From Candidatus Jordarchaeales archaeon (GTDB taxonomy: Archaea > Asgardarchaeota > Jordiarchaeia > Jordiarchaeales > Freyrarchaeaceae), in NCBI GenBank assembly GCA_038889235.1, contig JAWAHN010000001.1, positions 1,004,499 to 1,036,498 on the forward strand: a stretch of DNA of 32,000 bases, given 5' to 3'. Both the position numbers and the translations under genes were made by a program. The notes beneath the pieces are model-generated. The model had not been told where the DNA came from, made no database searches, and saw nothing but the letters and a program-made list of their open reading frames with translations. Below, in pieces: positions 20,928-30,788 of this stretch. The stretch's first letter is position 1. Every line of letters begins with the position of its first letter.

Positions 20928-21785
20928 TCAATCTACTGATTTAAACCTTCTGAGCATGAACTTTTCTCCCTTTAGTTGTCGCATCTTTTTACTTACTAAT
21001 ATTCTTGCAACTTTTCCACTCCACTTTTCATGAGCTATGTCAACACTTTCTTCAGTTAAAATGAGATCAATATACTCGATCTGTTGCCTTACAGCTTGTT
21101 CAAGAACATCGTCTGCTATGTTATTAACTCCCTTAATTATACCATAAACTAGCAACTGTTCTAGGGGTGAACGCCAATAGTGGTAAGAATAAGAAACTTT
21201 AACTTTCCACCTATTTAGCACTTTTCTTAGAAACCTAGTATTAATGCTGTGCGTTATCACAACAGGTTCACGGTAATTCGTAAGTAAAGTTAACAGTTTC
21301 TCATAGCTTTCCCACACCTTGTTTCCCTCACTAAGATAAGCGTTAAGTAGTTGCTTCCACTCGTTTAAAAAGAGCTTACCGGTAGCTTTGCACTTAAATT
21401 CGAGAAGCAGCTGTTTTTCTGAAAGAGCAGCGCTTTCTATATGCTTTGTTACATCGTGATAACAGTACACGTCAAACTTCATTAACTTATATTTTACCTT
21501 TAACGCGTTTAAAATTGGTGAAAAAACCTTCCCTAGGTAACGAGTCGCAGGTTCACTTGCACCCGTAAGTTCCATATATTCTTTCCACAGCTCTCCCTCC
21601 TCAACTAATTCTAATAAGACGCACCGTGTGGTTTCACTCAACTCCTCTGGTAATGGAATGAAAAGAGCGTCGAACTCTTTACTCAAAATGTACTCTCCCG
21701 CACGCCTGCCCGCCTCCACGAATCTCGGGACATGGAGAAGTATCACACTTCCCATCGTGTCATCTGTTTTAAATGTACTTTTCAT
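20928..21785 (-). CDS. Hypothetical protein (~285 aa)
   Basis: A long ORF with a GAGAGGAG RBS before ATG 21785 and protein-like composition. I cannot name the family. Confidence 0.7.
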   Translation of the reverse strand: MKSTFKTDDTMGSVILLHVPRFVEAGRRAGEYILSKEFDALFIPLPEELSETTRCVLLELVEEGELWKEYMELTGASEPATRYLGKVFSPILNALKVKYKLMKFDVYCYHDVTKHIESAALSEKQLLLEFKCKATGKLFLNEWKQLLNAYLSEGNKVWESYEKLLTLLTNYREPVVITHSINTRFLRKVLNRWKVKVSYSYHYWRSPLEQLLVYGIIKGVNNIADDVLEQAVRQQIEYIDLILTEESVDIAHEKWSGKVARILVSKKMRQLKGEKFMLRRFKSVD

Positions 21786-21964
21786 ATGCTCTCTCCTCTC
21801 ACTTACCATATGTGCTCTTTTCCGCGCTTGCAAGTGTCTTTTATCTCTGGAAGGCGTGTCTCTTGGCCGCAACATTTACCAAAGGAAAAAGAGGGAAAAA
21901 GGAAATAAAAGCGTCATGGCTACATGTGTATGAATACATATTAACTTATGGTGGTGTTCCTGTT

Positions 21965-22543
21965 TTGGCTCCCGATGTAAAGAAGGTTCACAGGTTTGGC
22001 GTCGAAGACGATTTAGACGCATCCTTTCTTCATGAGAAATTTGACGAACTAGAAGAGATAACAGTTTTAGAGTTAGAAAAACTGGCTGATGTTTTACATC
22101 TCCTTTTGGATTTAGAACCTTACACATGTCCAGTAAGAGGTGTAGATACTCCTTGCATTCTATGCGAAGAGAAATGCAGCGCTGCCAATTACCAAGAGAT
22201 CGAAACTAAACTCGGAAAGGGGCGGAAAACGATCAACAGCTCCACGTTCTTTCTCGCCTTTGAGAAACATGACGAGGTTGAAAAGTTTCTAATTAGAAAG
22301 TTAGCACGGGAGTTATCCAAGAAAAAACTTAATGTAATTGACCCAGAAGAAGGGTATGATATCGGCTTTCTCTTTACACATGAAGATAGGTGGAGAATGG
22401 AAGAAATTGTATCCTTTGTGGTGAAACTGTTTGAAAAAGTGAGAGTTTTGCTGCCTGAAGCAAAGTCCCTCCTCAACTCCTGGGTGAGAAAGAAAGTAGA
22501 AGAGATGGAGCGCGAAGAAATGTTAAAGAAAGGGAAGCACTGA
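21965..22543 (+). CDS. ARPC4 (Arp2/3 complex subunit 4)-like protein
   Basis: TINS...DEVEKFLIRKLAR...PEEGYDIGFLFT...IVSFVVKLFEKV...K..LNSWVRKKVEE parallels eukaryotic ARPC4 SINS...DEIEKILCHKFMR...PVEGYDISFLIT...LVDFVIHFMEEI...K..VNARARIVAEE (recalled from memory). A GGTGGTG RBS precedes TTG 21965. Confidence 0.8.
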   Translation: MAPDVKKVHRFGVEDDLDASFLHEKFDELEEITVLELEKLADVLHLLLDLEPYTCPVRGVDTPCILCEEKCSAANYQEIETKLGKGRKTINSSTFFLAFEKHDEVEKFLIRKLARELSKKKLNVIDPEEGYDIGFLFTHEDRWRMEEIVSFVVKLFEKVRVLLPEAKSLLNSWVRKKVEEMEREEMLKKGKH

Positions 22544-22589: not shown

Positions 22590-23792
22590 TCACTCTTCTA
22601 ATTCATATTCCTCGAAGGGGATGCCTGCTCTCTCTTTTAGTGCCTTTATTCTTTCAATTACTGTACGTATCTCCCCGCGTATTTTCGAGCGCTGGACAGC
22701 ATATTCTGCTTTCTCTATAGCTCCTGCTTGATACCTCATTGTAATATATTCTAATTGTTCCCTAAGCGATTTGAGTCTGCTCTTGAGCTCCTCTATTTCC
22801 TCGAGTAAAGTTGGAGATGCTGCCTGCTCTTTTATTACCTCGACTGGTAGCTTTGTAACAATTTGTGCTCCTCCTTTCTGAGATAACATTCTCGCAGCAA
22901 ATACCCTAAACTCGTTTACGAATGCGTCGAAGCGTTTTCTCAAATTAACAACTTCCACTAGAATTTTATCCAGTTGAGGGACATACATTGTTACATCAGG
23001 TACTCCTGACACTGCTGCTCTCTCCGAAGGAAGAATTACAGGTGCTTCATGTTGTGAAGTGTCCTCTTCCTCCAACGCGGGGACTGGAAGCGAAATGCTT
23101 TGAGCTTCTTTTCTCTTCTCTTTGAGCCAATTAAAGATATTTAAGGCGAAAAGAGAGTTCTGAGCAGCATTTAATCCACCAGCAGCTCTATCCCTAAATA
23201 TCTCGTATGAACCTAAAGCTACGACTTTGCCCACTCCGAACTCAGCAACAGCGGCAACGATAGCTTCTGGCGGCTCGGCGGTTTTGCTTGCAAAAGCCAC
23301 ACCTTCTGCATTTCCGCCAACAATTTTTAGTCCGCAGCCTGCAGGGTAGCATATCTCGCTAAGTCCTTGCGTAACAGGGTGATCTGAGAAGCGCGTGACT
23401 CTTGGTATGTTTCTGCTCATGTAATTTTGCCTTTCATCAATGACTTGATTATTCTGAAAAGATATCCCAAATCTTTCAGCTATGGCGTTTAAGTTAGTTC
23501 TTAACCCCGGATCCCCTCCTGCATGACTCATGATCAAAAGTCCTCCCCCGCGGGCTACAAAATTCACTATGGCATCCACTTCCGAAGGAGTAAACTTCGA
23601 CTGATCAGGACAGGGGATTACCAGAATATCAAATTTCTCTAGCTTTTCCTTGGTCACAGGCGGCTCTACCAGTCTAATACATTGAAATCCTTCTTTCTCA
23701 AGTAATCCCTTAAGCCCACTATAATTCAGTGCTAAGCGTCCTCGCTCCTTTTGTGTTTCGTCAAAGAGGACCTTGTAATTAAAGGCGCTCAT
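22590..23792 (-). CDS. GIFT/DUF4350 (IFT52-like GATase-fold) domain protein with C-terminal coiled coil and helical hairpin
   Basis: The N-domain reads VLFDE..KE...YSGL...L...VTKEKL..FDILVIPCP..KFTPSE..AI..FV..GGGLLIM...GG...RTNLN.I..RFGI.F.NN.V. A Pro/Ala/Glu linker follows, then heptad repeats. There is no signal peptide or TM helix. Confidence 0.75.
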   Translation of the reverse strand: MSAFNYKVLFDETQKERGRLALNYSGLKGLLEKEGFQCIRLVEPPVTKEKLEKFDILVIPCPDQSKFTPSEVDAIVNFVARGGGLLIMSHAGGDPGLRTNLNAIAERFGISFQNNQVIDERQNYMSRNIPRVTRFSDHPVTQGLSEICYPAGCGLKIVGGNAEGVAFASKTAEPPEAIVAAVAEFGVGKVVALGSYEIFRDRAAGGLNAAQNSLFALNIFNWLKEKRKEAQSISLPVPALEEEDTSQHEAPVILPSERAAVSGVPDVTMYVPQLDKILVEVVNLRKRFDAFVNEFRVFAARMLSQKGGAQIVTKLPVEVIKEQAASPTLLEEIEELKSRLKSLREQLEYITMRYQAGAIEKAEYAVQRSKIRGEIRTVIERIKALKERAGIPFEEYELEE

Positions 23793-24040: not shown

Positions 24041-26689
24041 ATGTACAAGGAAACCACCCTTTTGCAATTCCTTTCCTCTTCTAATGAAAAAACTAAAGAA
24101 AGCGATAAGAAAAATGGTACTAAACCTCCCAACTACACGAATAAAGAAGATAGCATTTTGTCTCAACCTCATACAGATAAGGATACCCATCTTACACCAA
24201 AAGAAACTGGTGCATGCCTCCTTATTTCAGTAGATTATGATGGTGAGCGAAATTGTGCTTATGTGCGCTTATATGATCCAGATAGCGGTAAACTCTTCTT
24301 TTGGTATGACAACACTGGGCATCGCCCCTACTGTCTTTCCGATCTTAGTGTTGAAGAATTGAAAAAGAATCCGAAGTTGATGTCGCATAGCGGCTTGGTA
24401 GGGTTCGAAGAAGTAGAGAAGTATGATCCTCTTCACGACAGAAAAGTGAAAATGACAAAGGTTATTGGGAGTAATCCTCTGGCGATAGGAGGCTCCCCCT
24501 CTTCTATTAGAGAAATTCTTCCCAACGCGTGGGAGGATAAGATACCCTACCATCATTGTTACATTTTCGATAGAAAATTAACTCCCGGAATGTTCTGGAG
24601 AATTAGAGATGGAAATTTGGAAAAAGTTGACCTAAATTTTGGAGAAGAGAAAGCCATTATGGAGTTATTTAAAAATGAACCAAAGGAAGTTCAGGAAATT
24701 TTAGCCGAATTCTTACCATTGTTCATGGCGCCGGTTCCGGACATCAAGCGTGTTGCTGTAGACATAGAGGTCCTCAGTGAGGTTGACAGGATTCCTGACC
24801 CTGAAGCAGCCGAAAACGAAGTGTTATGCGCTGCTTTAGTGTCAAATGATGGAGTTTCTAAGGTTCTCGTTTTGGAAAGAGAGGGTATGAATAAGGGTGA
24901 GGTCCCCAAAGAGTTGGTTGGCAAGTTTACCGTAGAATATTTTGCAAGTGAAATTGACCTCTTAAAGAGGCTTTTTAGTGAAATCGACAGATACCCGGTG
25001 GTTTTAACTTTTAATGGTGACAACTTTGACTTCAATTATTTATACCATAGAGCCTTAAAGTTAGGCTTCTCCAAAGAGGAGATCCCAATATTCCTGACTA
25101 AAGATGCGGCCTGTCTTCGTTACGGTGTGCACATAGACCTCTATAAGTTCTTTCACAACAAGTCGATACAGGTTTATGCCTTCTCGGGCAAATACAAGGA
25201 AGAAACACTTGACGCTATTTCCAAAGCACTTATCAACGTTGGTAAAATACAGATTGAAGAGGACATATCTCAATTACCGCTTCTCCTGTTAGCTGCGTAC
25301 TGCTGGCAGGACGCATACATAACTCTTGAGCTAACGCGTTTCGATGATAACTTGGTAATGAAACTAATCGTTTTAATGATGAGGATTTCACACTTGCCTA
25401 TGGGGGACTTGGTTAGGCAAGGAGTGTCCTCTTGGATTAAGAGTCTTTTCTACTATGAGCATAGAGCGAGAGGGTACCTTATTTCTAGACCGGAGGACAT
25501 ATTATCGATGAAAAACGTAAGAGACACAGAGCCCATAACGAAAGATAAAAAGTTCAAAGGAGCTAAAGTTGTTAAACCGAAACCTGGAGTACACTTCAAT
25601 GTTGCGGTATTAGACTTCGCCTCACTCTACCCGAGCATAATAAAAGAATATAATCTAAGTTATGAGACCGTGAGATGTCCTCATGAAGAATGCCGCACCA
25701 ACATTGTTCCGGAAACATCTCACTGGGTTTGCACCAAGAGACGGGGGATGAGCTCGCTTATAATCGGCTTCCTAAGAGATGTACGTGTTAAATGGTTTAA
25801 ACCTAAATCTAAAGATAAGGGGTTAAGCGAAGAATTACGAAAATGGTATTCCGTTGTTGAACGGGCGCTTAAAGTTTTCATAAACGCGAGTTACGGGGTT
25901 TTTGGAGCCGAACATTTTCCATTCTATTGTTTACCCGTAGCGGAAAGTACTGCTGCTATAGGCAGATATACAATAGAAGCAACTATAAGTAAAGCGCAGG
26001 AGCTCTCCCTAGAAATTATCTATGGAGACACAGACAGCGTGTTTATAAAGAATCCTCAGAGAGAGAAGGTGGAAGAATTAATTAAGTGGGCCCAGACCAC
26101 ACTCAACGTAGATTTAGACGTAGACAAGGTCTACCGCTATGTCGCTTTTTCTGAAAGAAAGAAGAATTATCTGGGAGTCTTCGAGGATGGCGCAGTAGAT
26201 ATCAAAGGTCTCACTGGAAGAAAACGCAACTCTCCACAGTTCATTCAGGAAGCATTTCTAAGAATGGTTGAAGTGTTAAGCAAAGTGCGTTCTGAGAAAG
26301 ACTTTAACGAAGCGAAAGACAAGATAGAAGAAATAGCACGTACATGCTACCTGAAAGTCCAGAGGAAAGAGTACAGCCTTGAGGAATTTGCATTCCGTGT
26401 GCAGCTAAATAAGCCCCTTAAGGGCTATGTAAAAACAACGCCGCAACACGTCAAGGCCGCTATGCAACTCTCTTCCTTTGGGAAAGATATCAAACCCGGC
26501 GACATAATCTCATTTGTCAAGGTTAAGGGGAAGGAGGGGGTCAAGCCCGTAGCTCTGGCCAAAAAAGAGGAAATAGATGTTGAAAAGTACAAGGAGTACC
26601 TCCGTACAGCGTTTGAACAGGTTTTAGATGCATTAGGATTAGATTTCGACAGAATTGTCGGATTAACAAGACTAGAATCCTGGATTTGA
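24041..26689 (+). CDS. polB1: Family B DNA polymerase, PolB1 type
   Basis: Has exonuclease motifs VDIEV and TFNGDNFD, polymerase motifs LDFASLYPSII, ALKVFINASYGVFG and YGDTDS, and a PolB1-like N-terminal region (YDP...WYDNTGHRPYCL). No intein is present. Confidence 0.95.
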   Translation: MYKETTLLQFLSSSNEKTKESDKKNGTKPPNYTNKEDSILSQPHTDKDTHLTPKETGACLLISVDYDGERNCAYVRLYDPDSGKLFFWYDNTGHRPYCLSDLSVEELKKNPKLMSHSGLVGFEEVEKYDPLHDRKVKMTKVIGSNPLAIGGSPSSIREILPNAWEDKIPYHHCYIFDRKLTPGMFWRIRDGNLEKVDLNFGEEKAIMELFKNEPKEVQEILAEFLPLFMAPVPDIKRVAVDIEVLSEVDRIPDPEAAENEVLCAALVSNDGVSKVLVLEREGMNKGEVPKELVGKFTVEYFASEIDLLKRLFSEIDRYPVVLTFNGDNFDFNYLYHRALKLGFSKEEIPIFLTKDAACLRYGVHIDLYKFFHNKSIQVYAFSGKYKEETLDAISKALINVGKIQIEEDISQLPLLLLAAYCWQDAYITLELTRFDDNLVMKLIVLMMRISHLPMGDLVRQGVSSWIKSLFYYEHRARGYLISRPEDILSMKNVRDTEPITKDKKFKGAKVVKPKPGVHFNVAVLDFASLYPSIIKEYNLSYETVRCPHEECRTNIVPETSHWVCTKRRGMSSLIIGFLRDVRVKWFKPKSKDKGLSEELRKWYSVVERALKVFINASYGVFGAEHFPFYCLPVAESTAAIGRYTIEATISKAQELSLEIIYGDTDSVFIKNPQREKVEELIKWAQTTLNVDLDVDKVYRYVAFSERKKNYLGVFEDGAVDIKGLTGRKRNSPQFIQEAFLRMVEVLSKVRSEKDFNEAKDKIEEIARTCYLKVQRKEYSLEEFAFRVQLNKPLKGYVKTTPQHVKAAMQLSSFGKDIKPGDIISFVKVKGKEGVKPVALAKKEEIDVEKYKEYLRTAFEQVLDALGLDFDRIVGLTRLESWI

Positions 26690-26803
26690 CCACATTTGAT
26701 CGTTTATCAAAGAATATTCAGTGCTCTTCCTTTTGAACACTTAGAGTTTAGAGTAAAACTTTTTACTTAGGGACTTTCTTTTTATTTCTTAAAAGTAAGG
26801 TTC

Positions 26804-27814
26804 GTGGTGTTACTTATGGAAATACGTGACCTCTTGGCTCGTAATGTACTGTTAATTGTAGATCCGTATACTCTGGGAAGGGATGCTGACGATTTTATGG
26901 CTGAATTTGGGGGATACATGGGGCAGATCGCTGCTGTGGCGAAGGATGAGGAGGGATTTGCACTTTATGACAGCAAGTATGCTCCCTTACACGAAAAACA
27001 TGGAAACTTTTTTTCAACTATAGCTGAAGCCGCCGGCGCTGTTGGGATCACGCTCTACGCGGTAATCAACACGTTCATTGATAATTACTATGCTGTCGAC
27101 CCTAGTTACAAGACTTATAATTCCGAGGGTGTTGCCGCCGAAGGATTCGTCTGCCCAAATAGGAGTGCTTTTTGGAGCTACTTAGCAAACATAGCTGATG
27201 AACTGTCTGCATATCCAATAAAAGGAATAATCCTCCAGGGCCTCTCTTACATACGCGAAAATTACTGTTTTTGCAATACTTGCAAGAACGAGTTTGCAAA
27301 AGTTGCCGGTCTTAATTTCGTAGCGAGTTTTGAATCACTGCGTGATGACCCCGAAGTTCTCTCCAAATGGTTTGAGTGGCGTGCTGAAAAAATTAAAAGC
27401 GTGGTAGCAAAGATACATGAAGTTGTTAAAGAAAAAGGTGTTGAAGTTCTTCCTATGGTGAACCTTGACCCGGGTGTAGGTTATCAAAATGGGGCTTACA
27501 CGCACTTCGGACAAAAGATAGAAGCCCTTTCAGAGATTACTGGGCATGTTCTGATAAACCTTAATTCATGGTCTCCCGTCCTACCTAAAATTGACACGCC
27601 GGAATTTAACGCCCTAATTCAAAACCTTCTGCCACTCAGAAACATAACCGCCAGACGCAGAAAAATCTCCTTTATGTACTGGGCGTTCACTGAAGAAGAC
27701 GAGTTTGAGTCACTAAAGAAGCTAGCGAGCTTCTTCAACGCAACTAAGATCGTAGCATACCCGAAATTTCCACGTAATTACAGACGTTGGCGCGAACTCC
27801 ACTTAAACATCTAA
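26804..27814 (+). CDS. Glycoside-hydrolase-like TIM-barrel protein (GHL10/GHL6-like), activity uncertain
   Basis: Motifs are FVCPN....W.YL.....EL..Y.IKGIIL, YCFCNTCK.EF, W.EWRAEKI...V..I...VK and FGQ. Confidence 0.65.
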   Translation: MVLLMEIRDLLARNVLLIVDPYTLGRDADDFMAEFGGYMGQIAAVAKDEEGFALYDSKYAPLHEKHGNFFSTIAEAAGAVGITLYAVINTFIDNYYAVDPSYKTYNSEGVAAEGFVCPNRSAFWSYLANIADELSAYPIKGIILQGLSYIRENYCFCNTCKNEFAKVAGLNFVASFESLRDDPEVLSKWFEWRAEKIKSVVAKIHEVVKEKGVEVLPMVNLDPGVGYQNGAYTHFGQKIEALSEITGHVLINLNSWSPVLPKIDTPEFNALIQNLLPLRNITARRRKISFMYWAFTEEDEFESLKKLASFFNATKIVAYPKFPRNYRRWRELHLNI

Positions 27815-27860
27815 AGCACTTTTTAACCTTCTGCATCTGAATTTGTTTCCTTCTTTATCT

Positions 27861-28418
27861 TTAACGTAGAGAGTGCCCGCATCTTTTGCAGAATCTGGCG
27901 TCTGAGGGGAGTGTTTCCCCACAAAAGATGCAAAATATTTTGCTTCCTTCAGAACTTACATTACTTTCAGAGTCTGGTCGCCGCTTATTAAAATAGTAAA
28001 TTCCTCCATCACTAAATGTCCCGATGTTATCCCTTGTGGAGTAATACTCTTTTTGCACTTCACTGATACTCCAAAGCCCCTTAGCATACTCTATAAACTT
28101 GTTATGCATGTAACGTTTTATCTTCAAATAATCATCTTCTGACAACCCTAGAAGTCTTAATGCCTCATCTCTGGTCGCGCACTTTTTCTCCAAACCACAG
28201 CAGTATGCAAGGCTACCGTAGCAAGTCATGGCCATAGCCTTATCTTGAAGGCTTTGAAAAACTGGGTGAATTCGTTCGCTGCCAATGACCAGTATCCCTC
28301 CCGCCTCCACTCTTACGTCGGCAAATCCCTCCTTTATGAGGGCACTCAGAACTTTGTCGGCAGGATATACGCGCCCATCTATCACTATGTTTCCCTCTGC
28401 TTTTGGGGTGCACCCCAT
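27861..28418 (-). CDS. Cys-rich protein with methanogenesis-marker-9-like half domain and C-terminal zinc ribbon
   Basis: Contains TCYGSLAYCCGLEKKCATRDEALRLLGLSEDDYLKIK and C-terminal CIFCGETLPSDARFCKRCG. An AAGGTGA RBS precedes ATG 28418. Confidence 0.7.
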   Translation of the reverse strand: MGCTPKAEGNIVIDGRVYPADKVLSALIKEGFADVRVEAGGILVIGSERIHPVFQSLQDKAMAMTCYGSLAYCCGLEKKCATRDEALRLLGLSEDDYLKIKRYMHNKFIEYAKGLWSISEVQKEYYSTRDNIGTFSDGGIYYFNKRRPDSESNVSSEGSKIFCIFCGETLPSDARFCKRCGHSLR

Positions 28419-28582
28419 TCCAATCACCTTGAAGGAGGAAGAGGGTACATTTTGTCGTCGATTTCTTCTCTTAGCGGTCTCTGTTTAAAAACACCTGTAA
28501 TATTCAGATTTTGTCCATATCAAAAGTTTTAATTTTCGTAGCATGGTATATGAATTAATGGAATTAAAAGGGGCTGACTAAG

Positions 28583-29371
28583 TTGTCTAGTGATGATTTT
28601 GAACGCATACTTGCCCAAGAAGCGCAATTGATGTATCAGCGTGCTAGCGGTTTCTCACCGGTGAAAGGCGATCTGACAGTCTGGAGAGGGGAAATAGAAG
28701 GTAGAGGAGAGTATAGAGGTCTCAAATTTGAGGTTGAAATAAAAATCCCCCCAACTTTTCCACAAGACCCTCCGTCTGTTAGGATGCTTTCCCCTACTGA
28801 TCACCCCAACGTGGATCCAGAAACGGGACGCGTTCGTCTAAGCATTTTAGATCAATGGCGGCCAGAATACCACGTCTACCACGTTGTTAACACAATTAAG
28901 GGAACATTTGCTAGAGTACCTCCTCGCCCCCTCTTTAAACCGCACATAAAGAAAGTTATGGTGTCAGCAATTGCTCCGGGTGAACCTTCACAGGTTGCTT
29001 CACCTGAAACCGCTGAGAAATTAAGCGCATTAGAGAGCCAGATTAAGGAACTTCAAAGAAAACTTCAGGAGAAAGATGAGGAAATTGCCTACCTTAAAGG
29101 TCGACTAACAACGCAAATAACCCCTGAAGTTAAAGCTGACCGCGTTAGCGCTATCAAAGTAGATGTCGATGAGCAGCTAGAATTGGAGAGCGAAAAAATA
29201 GCAATAGAAGACCTATTGAGATCGCTTGAAGAAAAGTTTGAAAGTGGGGAAATAGACCCGACAGACTACACACGCCTATACAGGAAGTACAAGAAAGAGT
29301 GGTATATAGTTACAAAGAAGCTTCGAATGCTTAAAAGTTTACCGAACCCAAGCTCTGGAGGAGAACGTTAA
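28583..29371 (+). CDS. ESCRT-I Vps23/TSG101-like protein (UEV domain, coiled coil, steadiness-box-like C-terminus)
   Basis: The UBC fold reads W.G.I.G...Y....F...I.IP..FP..PP.V...SPTDHPNVDPETGRVRLSIL, with Arg at the E2 catalytic Cys position. A Pro-rich linker, a coiled coil and EDLLRSLEEKFESGEIDPTDYTRLYR follow. Confidence 0.88.
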   Translation: MSSDDFERILAQEAQLMYQRASGFSPVKGDLTVWRGEIEGRGEYRGLKFEVEIKIPPTFPQDPPSVRMLSPTDHPNVDPETGRVRLSILDQWRPEYHVYHVVNTIKGTFARVPPRPLFKPHIKKVMVSAIAPGEPSQVASPETAEKLSALESQIKELQRKLQEKDEEIAYLKGRLTTQITPEVKADRVSAIKVDVDEQLELESEKIAIEDLLRSLEEKFESGEIDPTDYTRLYRKYKKEWYIVTKKLRMLKSLPNPSSGGER

Positions 29372-30039
29372 TGAGCATGGCCGAAAAAGTGAAATCACAG
29401 CGTGGAAACGAAAATTTGCGGCTTCAGTTGGAAGGAGAGCTATACGGATGCATCGCTACACTTGACATGCTAAGCAAGGTTTATGAAAACGGGTTAATCG
29501 ATGCAGATACCTATAGAAGACAATTAGAGTGGCATGTTAAACGCATTGTAAATGTGCGCTCAAGACTTGAAAGAGAGGGCTTCGATCTAAGGAAATTTGT
29601 TGAGGAAAACCAAATACTTAAAGATTATCCTTTCGCCTCTGCTAAGCTTCGGCTAATATCACCCGACGGCGCTACAATAAGGTCTGAAGATGAAATTCCT
29701 ATAGAAGCGCTTAAAGTTTCCCCCTCTGTTCTCGCTTCGAAAACTGCTGATGTTATCTCAAACTTGATAACATTAATGGATTCGTTGCAGCTGAAGGATT
29801 ACGCCCGAGTGGACGTTATTGTCCCCATACTTGATGAGCTACTTCTCCAACTTGAAAAGTTCCCCGGGTTGGATGGAGCGGAATACTGGGTTTACAAAGA
29901 GGCTAAAATTTGGCGTGACAAGCTGAAAGATCTACCCCCTGACATGATTCTTGAAGAAGAAGATGCTAAAAAAATGGGGTACAACGCATACCGCTGGTAT
30001 CGTGACTTTAAGCAACGGCTTAAAGACCTAACACTGTGA
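29371..30039 (+). CDS. ESCRT-I Vps28-like protein
   Basis: The N-terminal part reads ELYGCIATLDMLSKVYENGLIDADTY. The C-terminal bundle ADVISNLITLMDSLQL...VDVIVPILDELL...W...L......L resembles Vps28 ADVVSLFITVMDKLRL...MDEIQPDLREL. It overlaps the upstream stop by 1 bp. Confidence 0.9.
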   Translation: MSMAEKVKSQRGNENLRLQLEGELYGCIATLDMLSKVYENGLIDADTYRRQLEWHVKRIVNVRSRLEREGFDLRKFVEENQILKDYPFASAKLRLISPDGATIRSEDEIPIEALKVSPSVLASKTADVISNLITLMDSLQLKDYARVDVIVPILDELLLQLEKFPGLDGAEYWVYKEAKIWRDKLKDLPPDMILEEEDAKKMGYNAYRWYRDFKQRLKDLTL

Positions 30040-30788
30040 GGGAGGTCAGCATTTTGGGTTTACGCGAAATCCGTGAAAGAATTGAGATGAAGAAAAGTAT
30101 GGAAAAAAAGGCTCTCGAACTTAAACTGGAAGAACTAGAGAAGGAGCTTGAAAACGCGATGATGGTCAAAGAGAAGATAGAAAGTATCGCTGAAAAGTAC
30201 GGAGTTATCATAGCGGCTAGTCCTAAATTTCAAGAGGAAGTAAAGCTTCTAAGAGAAAAATACGGGATACCCGAAAGCGCGGTCATATCTCAAATAGTGA
30301 AAGAGGAAGACGTGTTAAAAGAAAGAATGTTTGGCCTATCTAAGAGCATAGATTACGAAAAACTTGGATTATTGATCTATCAACGTGCACTTTTCAGGCG
30401 TAAGGAAACGGGAGGGGTCATGTCCCTTGGGGAAGTGTGCCTCCTGATAGACACAGGCAAGCTCAAAGGTAAAATTAAAATGGATGATGTGAAGCGCGCT
30501 CTTAAAGAATTGGAGAAAAAACGTGTAATTCCCGGGTTACGCCAGCTTAAATCAGGAGTGGAAATCGCTATATTTATTCCGGCTGAGTTAAGTGACGATC
30601 AAAATGAAGTTCTAAATTTGGCTAGTGAAAAAGGCTTCATCACGTTAGAAGAATTAATGGTGAAGACTGGTTGGACAAAAGAGCGAGCTGAAAGAGTACT
30701 AAAATCGTTAGAAGAAAGTGGGATTGCCAGGAAAGAAGAAAGTTATGCATATGGAGAAAAATATTACTTCCCCGGACTAACTCGTTGA
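30036..30788 (+). CDS. ESCRT-II Vps22/SNF8-like (EAP30) protein with tandem winged helices
   Basis: Motifs are AEKY...I..SPKFQ, YEKLGL.I.......K.TGGVMSL.EV, DDVKRALKEL, ELSDDQNEVL.LA..KGFIT..EL....GWTKERA..VL..L...G.A and YYFPGL. There is a GTGA overlap with Vps28. Confidence 0.9.
   Translation: MREVSILGLREIRERIEMKKSMEKKALELKLEELEKELENAMMVKEKIESIAEKYGVIIAASPKFQEEVKLLREKYGIPESAVISQIVKEEDVLKERMFGLSKSIDYEKLGLLIYQRALFRRKETGGVMSLGEVCLLIDTGKLKGKIKMDDVKRALKELEKKRVIPGLRQLKSGVEIAIFIPAELSDDQNEVLNLASEKGFITLEELMVKTGWTKERAERVLKSLEESGIARKEESYAYGEKYYFPGLTR

Follow-up and report, generated by a model that had tools for sequence, protein, structure and literature searches.

An Asgard GIFT-domain protein with a steadiness-box-like hairpin near an ESCRT-I/II operon

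[quoted passage not shown] A gene located 4.8 kb from this operon encodes a protein with an N-terminal GIFT domain and a C-terminal helical hairpin, which resembles the steadiness box (SB) of ESCRT-I. This arrangement raises the question whether the GIFT protein is the missing third, Vps37-like subunit of ESCRT-I, as an earlier note on this DNA proposed. Asgard archaea have no clear Vps37 (Hatano et al., PMC9192718). In the Odin complex, a Vps23 dimer binds one Vps28 according to size-exclusion chromatography with multi-angle light scattering (SEC-MALS), forming a trimer without a third protein, and free-standing SB proteins occur in Loki and Thor (PMC9192718). Moreover, Makarova et al. (2024) reported diverse SB-containing multidomain Asgard proteins that may dock on ESCRT-I, proposed that the other domains of these proteins recognise substrate, and named the Znr_PH_CC_SB family (cog.011556) a likely ESCRT-I component (PMC10936438).

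In our analysis, the proposal of a third ESCRT-I subunit finds no support from hidden Markov models (HMMs), hairpin specificity, synteny or phyletic pattern. We favour, with moderate confidence, a conserved cytosolic Asgard GIFT adaptor, whose stalk and hairpin would constitute a generic SB/CdvA-like oligomerisation or docking module.

The GIFT protein and its Asgard family

The gene and the parts of its product are as follows (plain numbers are positions in the window; C1 and C2 are contigs of the assembly).

22590..23792, minus strand: gene of the GIFT protein, 400 amino acids plus stop codon, an intact open reading frame (ORF); Asgard-conserved GIFT domain, linker, stalk and hairpin
23109..23792, minus strand: IFT52-type GIFT domain (GATase1/ThuA-like fold), residues 1-228, from Pfam, PDB phmmer, AlphaFold2 (AF2) and Foldseek
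22992..23108, minus strand: disordered Pro/Ala/Glu-rich linker, residues 229-267, with an AF2 predicted local distance difference test (pLDDT) score <50; variable and gapped in the 36-sequence alignment
22881..22982, minus strand: stalk helix, residues 271-304, present in both AF2 models and conserved; aligned with the stalk helix of the Vps23-like protein by hmmsearch and hhalign
22626..22814, minus strand: SB/CdvA-like helical hairpin, residues 327-389, from AF2, hhalign and structural matches

The AF2 model of the GIFT protein, built on 36 homologues, bears out the layout given in the earlier note, in which a globular domain is followed by a Pro/Ala/Glu linker, a coiled coil and a hairpin. 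The assignment of the N-terminal region to an IFT52-like GIFT domain likewise holds in profile, sequence and fold searches. The Pfam family IFT52_GIFT (PF23355) matches the protein with an E-value of 8.7e-16 and 58.2 bits (curated cut-off, 27.2) and matches all 36 family members examined, with a best E of 4e-23, while ABC_transp_aux, DUF4350 and ThuA match the same domain more weakly. A phmmer search of the PDB retrieves the N-domains of Chlamydomonas and mouse IFT52 (E 1e-11 to 2e-9), which share 23-25% identity with the GIFT protein over about 230 aligned columns. The predicted domain has pLDDT values mostly >90 for residues 1-225, and in Foldseek its first matches are 5fmr/5fms (E 1e-15 to 4e-12; target TM-score, TMt, 0.78-0.89), followed by STM3548, OST48 in oligosaccharyltransferase (OST) complexes (6s7t_G) and ThuA-like proteins.

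About 35 columns of the GIFT domain are invariant among the 36 sequences, which come from Jord, Frey, Thor-type and Hel-type members; residues Q14, E16, R17, G18, C61, P62, S65, G93, D94 and G96 as well as N100, N114, D119, N123, H138, Y196 and R200 are among them. The invariant residues sit in loops after strands, a position that points to a conserved binding pocket. A specific ligand or partner is the most likely occupant of this putative, strongly conserved pocket at the C-terminal strand ends.

The pair Cys61-Pro62 directly follows a strand, and His138, Cys153 and Asp94 are also invariant across the Asgard GIFT family. These residues may belong to a ligand pocket or to a catalytic site. 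A GATase1-type enzyme was considered on account of the invariant Cys61 and His138; Cys61 aligns with Gly in IFT52. Neither a signal peptide nor a transmembrane segment is visible in the GIFT protein, which is therefore presumably cytosolic; for the same reason, its reading as an OST48 orthologue was rejected. Two more GIFT-like segments are found in the same genome (C1:755328-755594 and C1:468140-468613), within open frames of 855 and 1424 amino acids.

The C-terminal region is composed of the stalk helix and the hairpin, joined by a stretch (residues 307-324) that is disordered in AF2. The stalk helix carries an unbroken hydrophobic stripe with 3-4 heptad spacing, and its residues F295, F298 and A299, together with Q305, are nearly invariant. 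The two helices of the hairpin (327-355 and 361-389) and the turn between them (356-360) are all predicted with pLDDT 92-97; the chain reverses at G357-A358, and Y364 and Q367 are conserved. A separate AF2 model of residues 268-400 only agrees with the full-length model. An ESM Atlas search with the same residues gave no usable match.

The protein belongs to an Asgard family. Its closest named homologues come from Jordarchaeales (74% identity) and Freyarchaeota (52%), and every named one among its 67 homologues is labelled Asgard. The family was found in 251 of 301 sampled Asgard genomes, including 84 of the 90 of high quality, so that its co-occurrence with ESCRT-I is uninformative. Two genomes (G007, 96% complete, and G062, 93% complete) possess Vps28 without a GIFT match in protein and family searches, which speaks against a constitutive role in ESCRT-I. 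The longer homologues combine GIFT only with protease/PKD-type multidomain arrangements; no fusion to an ESCRT domain is present among them, which is weak evidence.

The C-terminal parts vary within the family. The stalk is seen in Jord, Frey and Thor-type members and is not evident in families f9 and f23. The hairpin is retained in families f1, f2, f7, f9, f23 and f26 and is replaced by other helical C-termini in the Odin-type (f3), f20 and Heimdall-type (f27) proteins. This pattern, in which the hairpin is kept in some families and swapped in others, fits a generic assembly module, and the lack of the hairpin in Odin-type and Heimdall-type orthologues disagrees with a dedicated ESCRT-I subunit. 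In the Odin-type proteins, the C-terminus is formed by a long coiled coil to which a basic tail is attached. In the Heimdall-type proteins, a long Pro/Thr-rich linker precedes a helical end that is of a different kind, comprises about 45 residues and is almost invariant.

The combination of GIFT domain, stalk and SB-like hairpin defines a near-universal Asgard family, an architecture that we did not see described in the literature searched. The search returned no work linking Asgard archaea to IFT52, the GIFT domain or intraflagellar transport. In addition, GIFT, IFT52, GldG and DUF4350 are unmentioned in the text of PMC10936438 and in those supplements that were covered, one of them in part. 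The GIFT protein is an addition to the known Asgard proteins bearing an SB-like hairpin.

The hairpin and its relatives

The earlier note connected the hairpin with ESCRT-I through a short motif, L...[YF]..G.I....Y. The Vps23-like and Vps28 proteins of the neighbouring operon do carry this motif and are its only exact matches in the genome, but the GIFT protein has Ile349 instead of Leu at the first position. A relaxed form of the motif, written as a regular expression, gives 40 matches against 28.6 +/- 5.9 in shuffled ORFs, which is barely above chance; the motif alone is therefore weak evidence and was rejected as such. The resemblance of the hairpins is significant at profile level only.

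Profiles tell more than the motif. An HMM of the C-terminus of the GIFT family, searched against the 6757 ORFs of the genome, ranks the Vps23-like protein fourth (E 6e-4), and the match is collinear across the stalk helix, linker and hairpin. The hhalign comparison of the GIFT C-terminus with nine Vps23-like C-termini reaches a probability of 86.5% (P 4.6e-6, 115 collinear columns), and the hairpin alone scores 89.5% against the Vps23-like SB. Column-reversed controls for these comparisons give 0.3-2.2%, the upper value being that of the stalk and hairpin together. The claim that the GIFT protein mirrors the layout of the nearby Vps23-like protein is thereby upheld for stalk and hairpin. The comparison of the GIFT hairpin with eleven Vps28 N-hairpins gives 87.5%, but its reversed control reaches 57%, and it thus carries less weight.

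The hairpin recurs in at least seven other proteins of this genome, one of which, of 106 residues, is a weak match only.

ESCRT-I/II operon of the window: Vps23-like protein and Vps28, both hairpin carriers
C2:12293-13774: Znr/PH/CC/SB protein, 493 amino acids, with a Zn finger, a weak Vps36-GLUE/PH match, a Pro-rich linker and the hairpin
C2:14813-17656: HerA/DUF87-like P-loop ATPase, 947 amino acids, with an SB-like hairpin at the C-terminus
C1:359670-361409: ribophorin I (OST1) homologue, with a cytoplasmic coiled coil and the hairpin motif at the C-terminus
C1:800123-800824: Zn-ribbon protein, 233 amino acids, with two hairpins (SHOCT 3e-5, CdvA 3e-4)
C2:291012-291332: 106-residue protein, weak (hmmsearch E 0.03; hhalign 3%, under its reversed control)

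We take the 493-residue protein to be a member of the Znr_PH_CC_SB family that Makarova et al. described. Self excluded, no protein of the genome scores better with the GIFT C-terminal HMM (E 1e-5); the ribophorin I tail is matched by this HMM only weakly (E 0.07).

The hhalign comparisons separate these hairpins. The Vps23-like SB scores 96.5% against the Vps28 N-hairpin and 96.2% against the Znr/PH/CC/SB protein. The GIFT hairpin scores 90.6% against both the ribophorin I tail and the SHOCT-scoring hairpin, 67.9% against the HerA-like tail and 61.8% against the Znr/PH/CC/SB protein. In terms of these profile alignments, the Vps23-like, Vps28 and Znr/PH/CC/SB proteins form a tight cluster of genuine steadiness boxes at the 96% level, with the GIFT hairpin outside it, equidistant from ESCRT-I and non-ESCRT hairpins. 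In the reciprocal search, an HMM of the Vps23-like SB finds the Znr/PH/CC/SB protein at E 1.8e-7 and leaves the GIFT protein unmatched at E <= 10.

Pfam leads in the same direction. The profile check against Mod_r/Vps37 gives no match to the GIFT protein at E <= 1, and the same applies to Vps23_core and VPS28, as well as to SHOCT (PF09851) and CdvA (PF18822). Across the 36 members, 225 Pfam families are matched; the 25 most-matched include neither Vps23_core nor Mod_r nor VPS28, and for the C-terminus they contain generic coiled-coil families only. The hhalign matrix, the failed reciprocal HMM and the absent Pfam matches together place the GIFT hairpin in a broad class and not demonstrably in the ESCRT-I subset. 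The family PF24161, which is precomputed for some Thor-type GIFT proteins and one Vps23-like homologue, was dropped as it was not reproduced with local Pfam.

Structural searches give a similar picture. Foldseek with the C-terminal model returns nothing below E 0.3. Its top match is 8whn, the cytoplasmic domain of OST1 from MK-D1 (Prometheoarchaeum), at E 0.31, and ranks 2-9 are mostly ESCRT-I, with several chains of the human headpiece 6vme (root-mean-square deviation 1.1-1.2 A over 67-68 columns); 2p22_B, 2f6m_C and 2f66_A are further ESCRT-I matches. VIA-align, which is independent of Foldseek, was run against 48,161 representative chains. Its first rank is residues 318-388 of 6vme_B (Z 9.3), presumably TSG101, followed by 8whn_A (Z 9.2), the CdvA filament of S. 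islandicus (9s9g_A, Z 9.0) and, at rank 5, yeast Vps23 (2f66_A, Z 8.8). Fifty entries fall between Z 8.0 and 9.3, including arms of SMC proteins and seryl-tRNA synthetase, designed hairpins and the CHMP4B hairpin. The list was therefore rejected as proof of ESCRT-I membership, many of its entries being generic hairpins. As modelled, the hairpin is of the ESCRT-I/CdvA/OST1-tail type, which structure alone cannot set apart from generic hairpins.

Gene neighbourhood and competing readings

The GIFT gene is surrounded by the following genes of the window, and the remaining ESCRT genes of the genome are located elsewhere. The operon, the Vps4/Vps25 locus and the Snf7 locus are its three ESCRT loci.

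28583..30788, plus strand: ESCRT-I/II operon of UEV-Vps23-like, Vps28 and EAP30/Vps22-like genes, on the strand opposite to the GIFT gene
24041..28427: genes of the family-B DNA polymerase PolB (plus strand), a GHL10-like protein (plus strand) and a Zn-ribbon protein (minus strand), between the GIFT gene and the operon
21773-22543: ARPC4-like gene (E 2.9e-7 to Pfam ARPC4), running towards the GIFT gene in convergent orientation at a distance of 46 bp
C1:977751-978433: Vps4 and Vps25
C2:13987-14702 and C2:17710-18207: Snf7 genes, flanking the HerA-like ATPase gene and adjoining the Znr/PH/CC/SB gene

The operon proteins are assigned by Pfam. The Vps23-like protein matches UQ_con (1e-18), Vps23_core (9e-5) and, at 0.45, Mod_r, and its homologues reach 35.7 bits for Vps23_core; the other two match VPS28 (1.4e-16) and EAP30 (2e-17). 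The position of the HerA-like ATPase gene, embedded between ESCRT-III (Snf7) genes, is unusual.

Synteny was examined by phmmer of the window proteins against 20 loci around GIFT orthologues, and Vps28 was placed in five complete or near-complete genomes. Two relatives in the Jordarchaeal family f1 keep the whole order of EAP30, Vps28, Vps23-like, Zn-ribbon, GHL10-like, PolB, GIFT and ARPC4-like genes. In Frey genomes, only the ARPC4-like, GIFT, PolB and GHL10-like genes are still together, the adjacency of the ARPC4-like and GIFT genes being preserved. Four Thor-type genomes keep the GIFT, PolB, GHL10-like and Zn-ribbon genes together, and the genes past the Zn-ribbon gene there have no match to the ESCRT-I proteins of the window. 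Beside the GIFT gene at the Odin, f9, f20, f23, f26 and f27 loci, no neighbour gene known from the window was found. The Vps28 and GIFT genes are 57 kb (Odin), 98 kb (Frey), 615 kb (one Thor-type genome) and 1.06 Mb (f23) apart, and in f9 the two are on different contigs. The adjacency to ESCRT-I is hence confined to family f1 and is lost in the other Asgard loci examined. The conserved neighbour of the GIFT gene is the PolB gene, from which it diverges at a distance of 248 bp, and not ESCRT-I; the PolB block is far more widely kept.

The argument that no Vps37-like partner is available holds for the operon itself but fails for the genome as a whole, which contains the Znr/PH/CC/SB protein beside the Snf7 genes. 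On the strength of its profile matches, this protein is a much better candidate for the third hairpin than the GIFT protein.

These observations are most readily reconciled with the cytosolic GIFT adaptor that we favour. In such a protein, the disordered linker would tether the GIFT domain to the heptad coiled-coil stalk and the two-helix hairpin. The pocket of the GIFT domain, which belongs to the IFT52/OST48/ThuA fold class, would bind its ligand or partner, and the stalk and hairpin would assemble homo- or hetero-oligomers displaying several GIFT domains, without being a dedicated ESCRT-I subunit. The hairpin is one of a broad Asgard class, to which the steadiness boxes of ESCRT-I, CdvA, the OST1 cytoplasmic tail and SHOCT-like hairpins also belong. 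Three observations weigh against this reading. The collinear similarity to the Vps23-like protein (86.5%) and the first-rank match to TSG101 are also expected of a module that docks on ESCRT-I. Four hairpin-bearing proteins of the genome sit in ESCRT loci, so that the hairpin class may be more ESCRT-linked than the word generic implies. Finally, in family f1 the GIFT gene lies 5 kb from the ESCRT-I/II operon.

An alternative that we consider unlikely is that the protein is a facultative ESCRT accessory, whose SB-like hairpin docks interchangeably on SB-bearing ESCRT proteins and whose GIFT domain recognises cargo. This would be in line with the proposal that SB-containing multidomain Asgard proteins meet ESCRT-I via their SB (PMC10936438). 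The GIFT hairpin is of the same sequence and structure class, and the Znr/PH/CC/SB protein and the HerA-like ATPase are encoded amid the Snf7 genes on C2, which suggests that the hairpin module is enriched in ESCRT loci. A conserved linkage to ESCRT-I is lacking for such an accessory, however, just as it is for a Vps37 equivalent, and the OST1 tail and the SHOCT-like hairpin resemble the GIFT hairpin to the same degree. The silence of PMC10936438 on GIFT proteins, within the part of that source described above, is a further point on the same side, and the lack of GIFT-ESCRT fusions is a weak one.

An extended form of this idea, also unlikely and slightly more so, is a shared docking code, by which at least seven hairpin proteins would combine in SB-type bundles, with the GIFT protein serving as a cargo or glycan adaptor to ESCRT-I. 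The set would comprise the Vps23-like, Vps28, Znr/PH/CC/SB, HerA-like ATPase, ribophorin I, Zn-ribbon and GIFT proteins.

The Vps37 equivalent from which we started is improbable. Here the stalk and hairpin would fill the third slot of the headpiece together with the Vps23-like and Vps28 proteins, making GIFT a constitutive part of ESCRT-I. The collinear profile similarity, the fourth rank of the Vps23-like protein in the HMM search, the TSG101 and Vps23 hairpins among the top structural matches, the short distance to the operon here and in two relatives, and the want of a recognised Vps37 in Asgards all agree with it. Yet the ribophorin I tail and the SHOCT-like hairpin are as close to the GIFT hairpin as the ESCRT-I steadiness boxes are, the ESCRT-I profiles and the reciprocal SB search miss the GIFT protein, and the linkage disappears outside f1. 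Moreover, the GIFT gene lies on the other strand and forms a transcription unit of its own, Vps28 occurs without it in G007 and G062, and the Odin ESCRT-I contains two Vps23 and one Vps28 by SEC-MALS (PMC9192718).

A factor linked to the translocon or OST, in which the GIFT protein pairs with the OST1 tail or binds ribosomes at the membrane, is very improbable. It draws on the top Foldseek match (8whn, second in VIA-align), on the hhalign score of 90.6% for the ribophorin I tail of this genome, on the N-domain, whose fold matches OST48 among the best, and on the pull-down of human ribosomes by the 8whn domain (PMC11417166). But the Foldseek match has an E of just 0.31, the VIA-align Z is tied with many generic hairpins, and the HMM similarity to the ribophorin I tail is weak. 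In addition, OST48 is lumenal and membrane-anchored, while the GIFT protein has neither signal peptide nor transmembrane segment, and the GIFT gene is not adjacent to that of the ribophorin I homologue.

An archaeal forerunner of IFT52, sharing its architecture and ancestral to the eukaryotic protein, is suggested by the IFT52 N-domains as best PDB matches in sequence and fold, by the IFT52_GIFT scores of Thor-type members, which rise to 82 bits where ABC_transp_aux gives the same protein 27 bits, and by the near-universal spread of the family. We regard it as extremely improbable. When residues 1-228 were compared by phmmer with 1.84 billion cluster representatives, 2581 matches were obtained at E <= 1e-3; the best 150, many of them multidomain proteins of 800-3800 amino acids, score >= 81 bits against 47.8 bits for PDB IFT52. 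At least 150 prokaryotic-type representatives therefore outscore IFT52, and it is not the nearest relative of the GIFT family. Moreover, the linker and C-terminus give only generic coiled-coil Pfam matches at E <= 1.

Relation to known systems

The analysis bears on how the Asgard ESCRT-I headpiece is completed and how its cargo is selected: one attractive candidate is found here not to be specifically tied to ESCRT-I. It also groups the GIFT family with other proteins carrying the hairpin, a set amenable to testing as a network of interactions. If the GIFT protein does dock on ESCRT-I, a domain of the IFT52/OST48 type would have been joined to membrane remodelling before eukaryotes arose; a docking code, if real, would mean that machineries kept apart in eukaryotes are linked in a prokaryote.

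The GIFT protein shares with IFT52 (PF23355; 5FMR, 5FMS and 8BD7 chain B) the GIFT fold and the cytosolic location assumed here; in both, the domain is succeeded by a Pro-rich linker, which is disordered, and by a helical region at the C-terminus. The PDB IFT52 alignments stop inside the GIFT domain, and downstream only coiled-coil Pfam families are matched, although Pfam may lack models for these regions of IFT52. The two differ in that the Asgard Cys61-Pro62 aligns with Gly-Pro in both IFT52 sequences compared, and many prokaryotic GIFT-like proteins are closer to the Asgard family than IFT52 is.

With the ESCRT-I core proteins Vps23/TSG101 and Vps37 (PF09454, PF07200; 2F66, 2P22, 6VME), the GIFT protein has in common the stalk helix, the short linker and a hairpin of two helices of about 29 residues, whose turn contains a Gly that is followed 7 positions on by an aromatic residue. 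It is distinguished from them by a GIFT domain in place of the UEV N-domain, a similarity below the 96% of genuine steadiness boxes, and the lack of a conserved genomic coupling. The Znr_PH_CC_SB family (PMC10936438) is likewise Asgard-specific and is composed of globular domains, a Pro-rich linker, a coiled coil and a C-terminal hairpin. Its steadiness box is clear (96.2% and E 1.8e-7 to the Vps23-like protein) and its gene adjoins ESCRT-III genes, whereas the GIFT hairpin scores 62% against it and the GIFT gene shows no comparable linkage.

In Foldseek, the C-terminal model is matched best by the tail of Asgard OST1/ribophorin I (8WHN; PMC11417166), which has Z 9.2 in VIA-align, and the homologue in this genome ends in the same hairpin motif. 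OST1 differs as a membrane protein with a ribosome-binding tail; the statistics of the match are weak, with E 0.31 in Foldseek, and generic hairpins tie with it. Finally, the SHOCT hairpin is shorter, with 28 positions, and the GIFT protein stays under both the SHOCT and CdvA models (PF09851, PF18822) at E <= 1; nevertheless, CdvA/SHOCT proteins (9S9G) possess a helical hairpin with the same turn motif, and CdvA matches the GIFT hairpin at Z 9.0.

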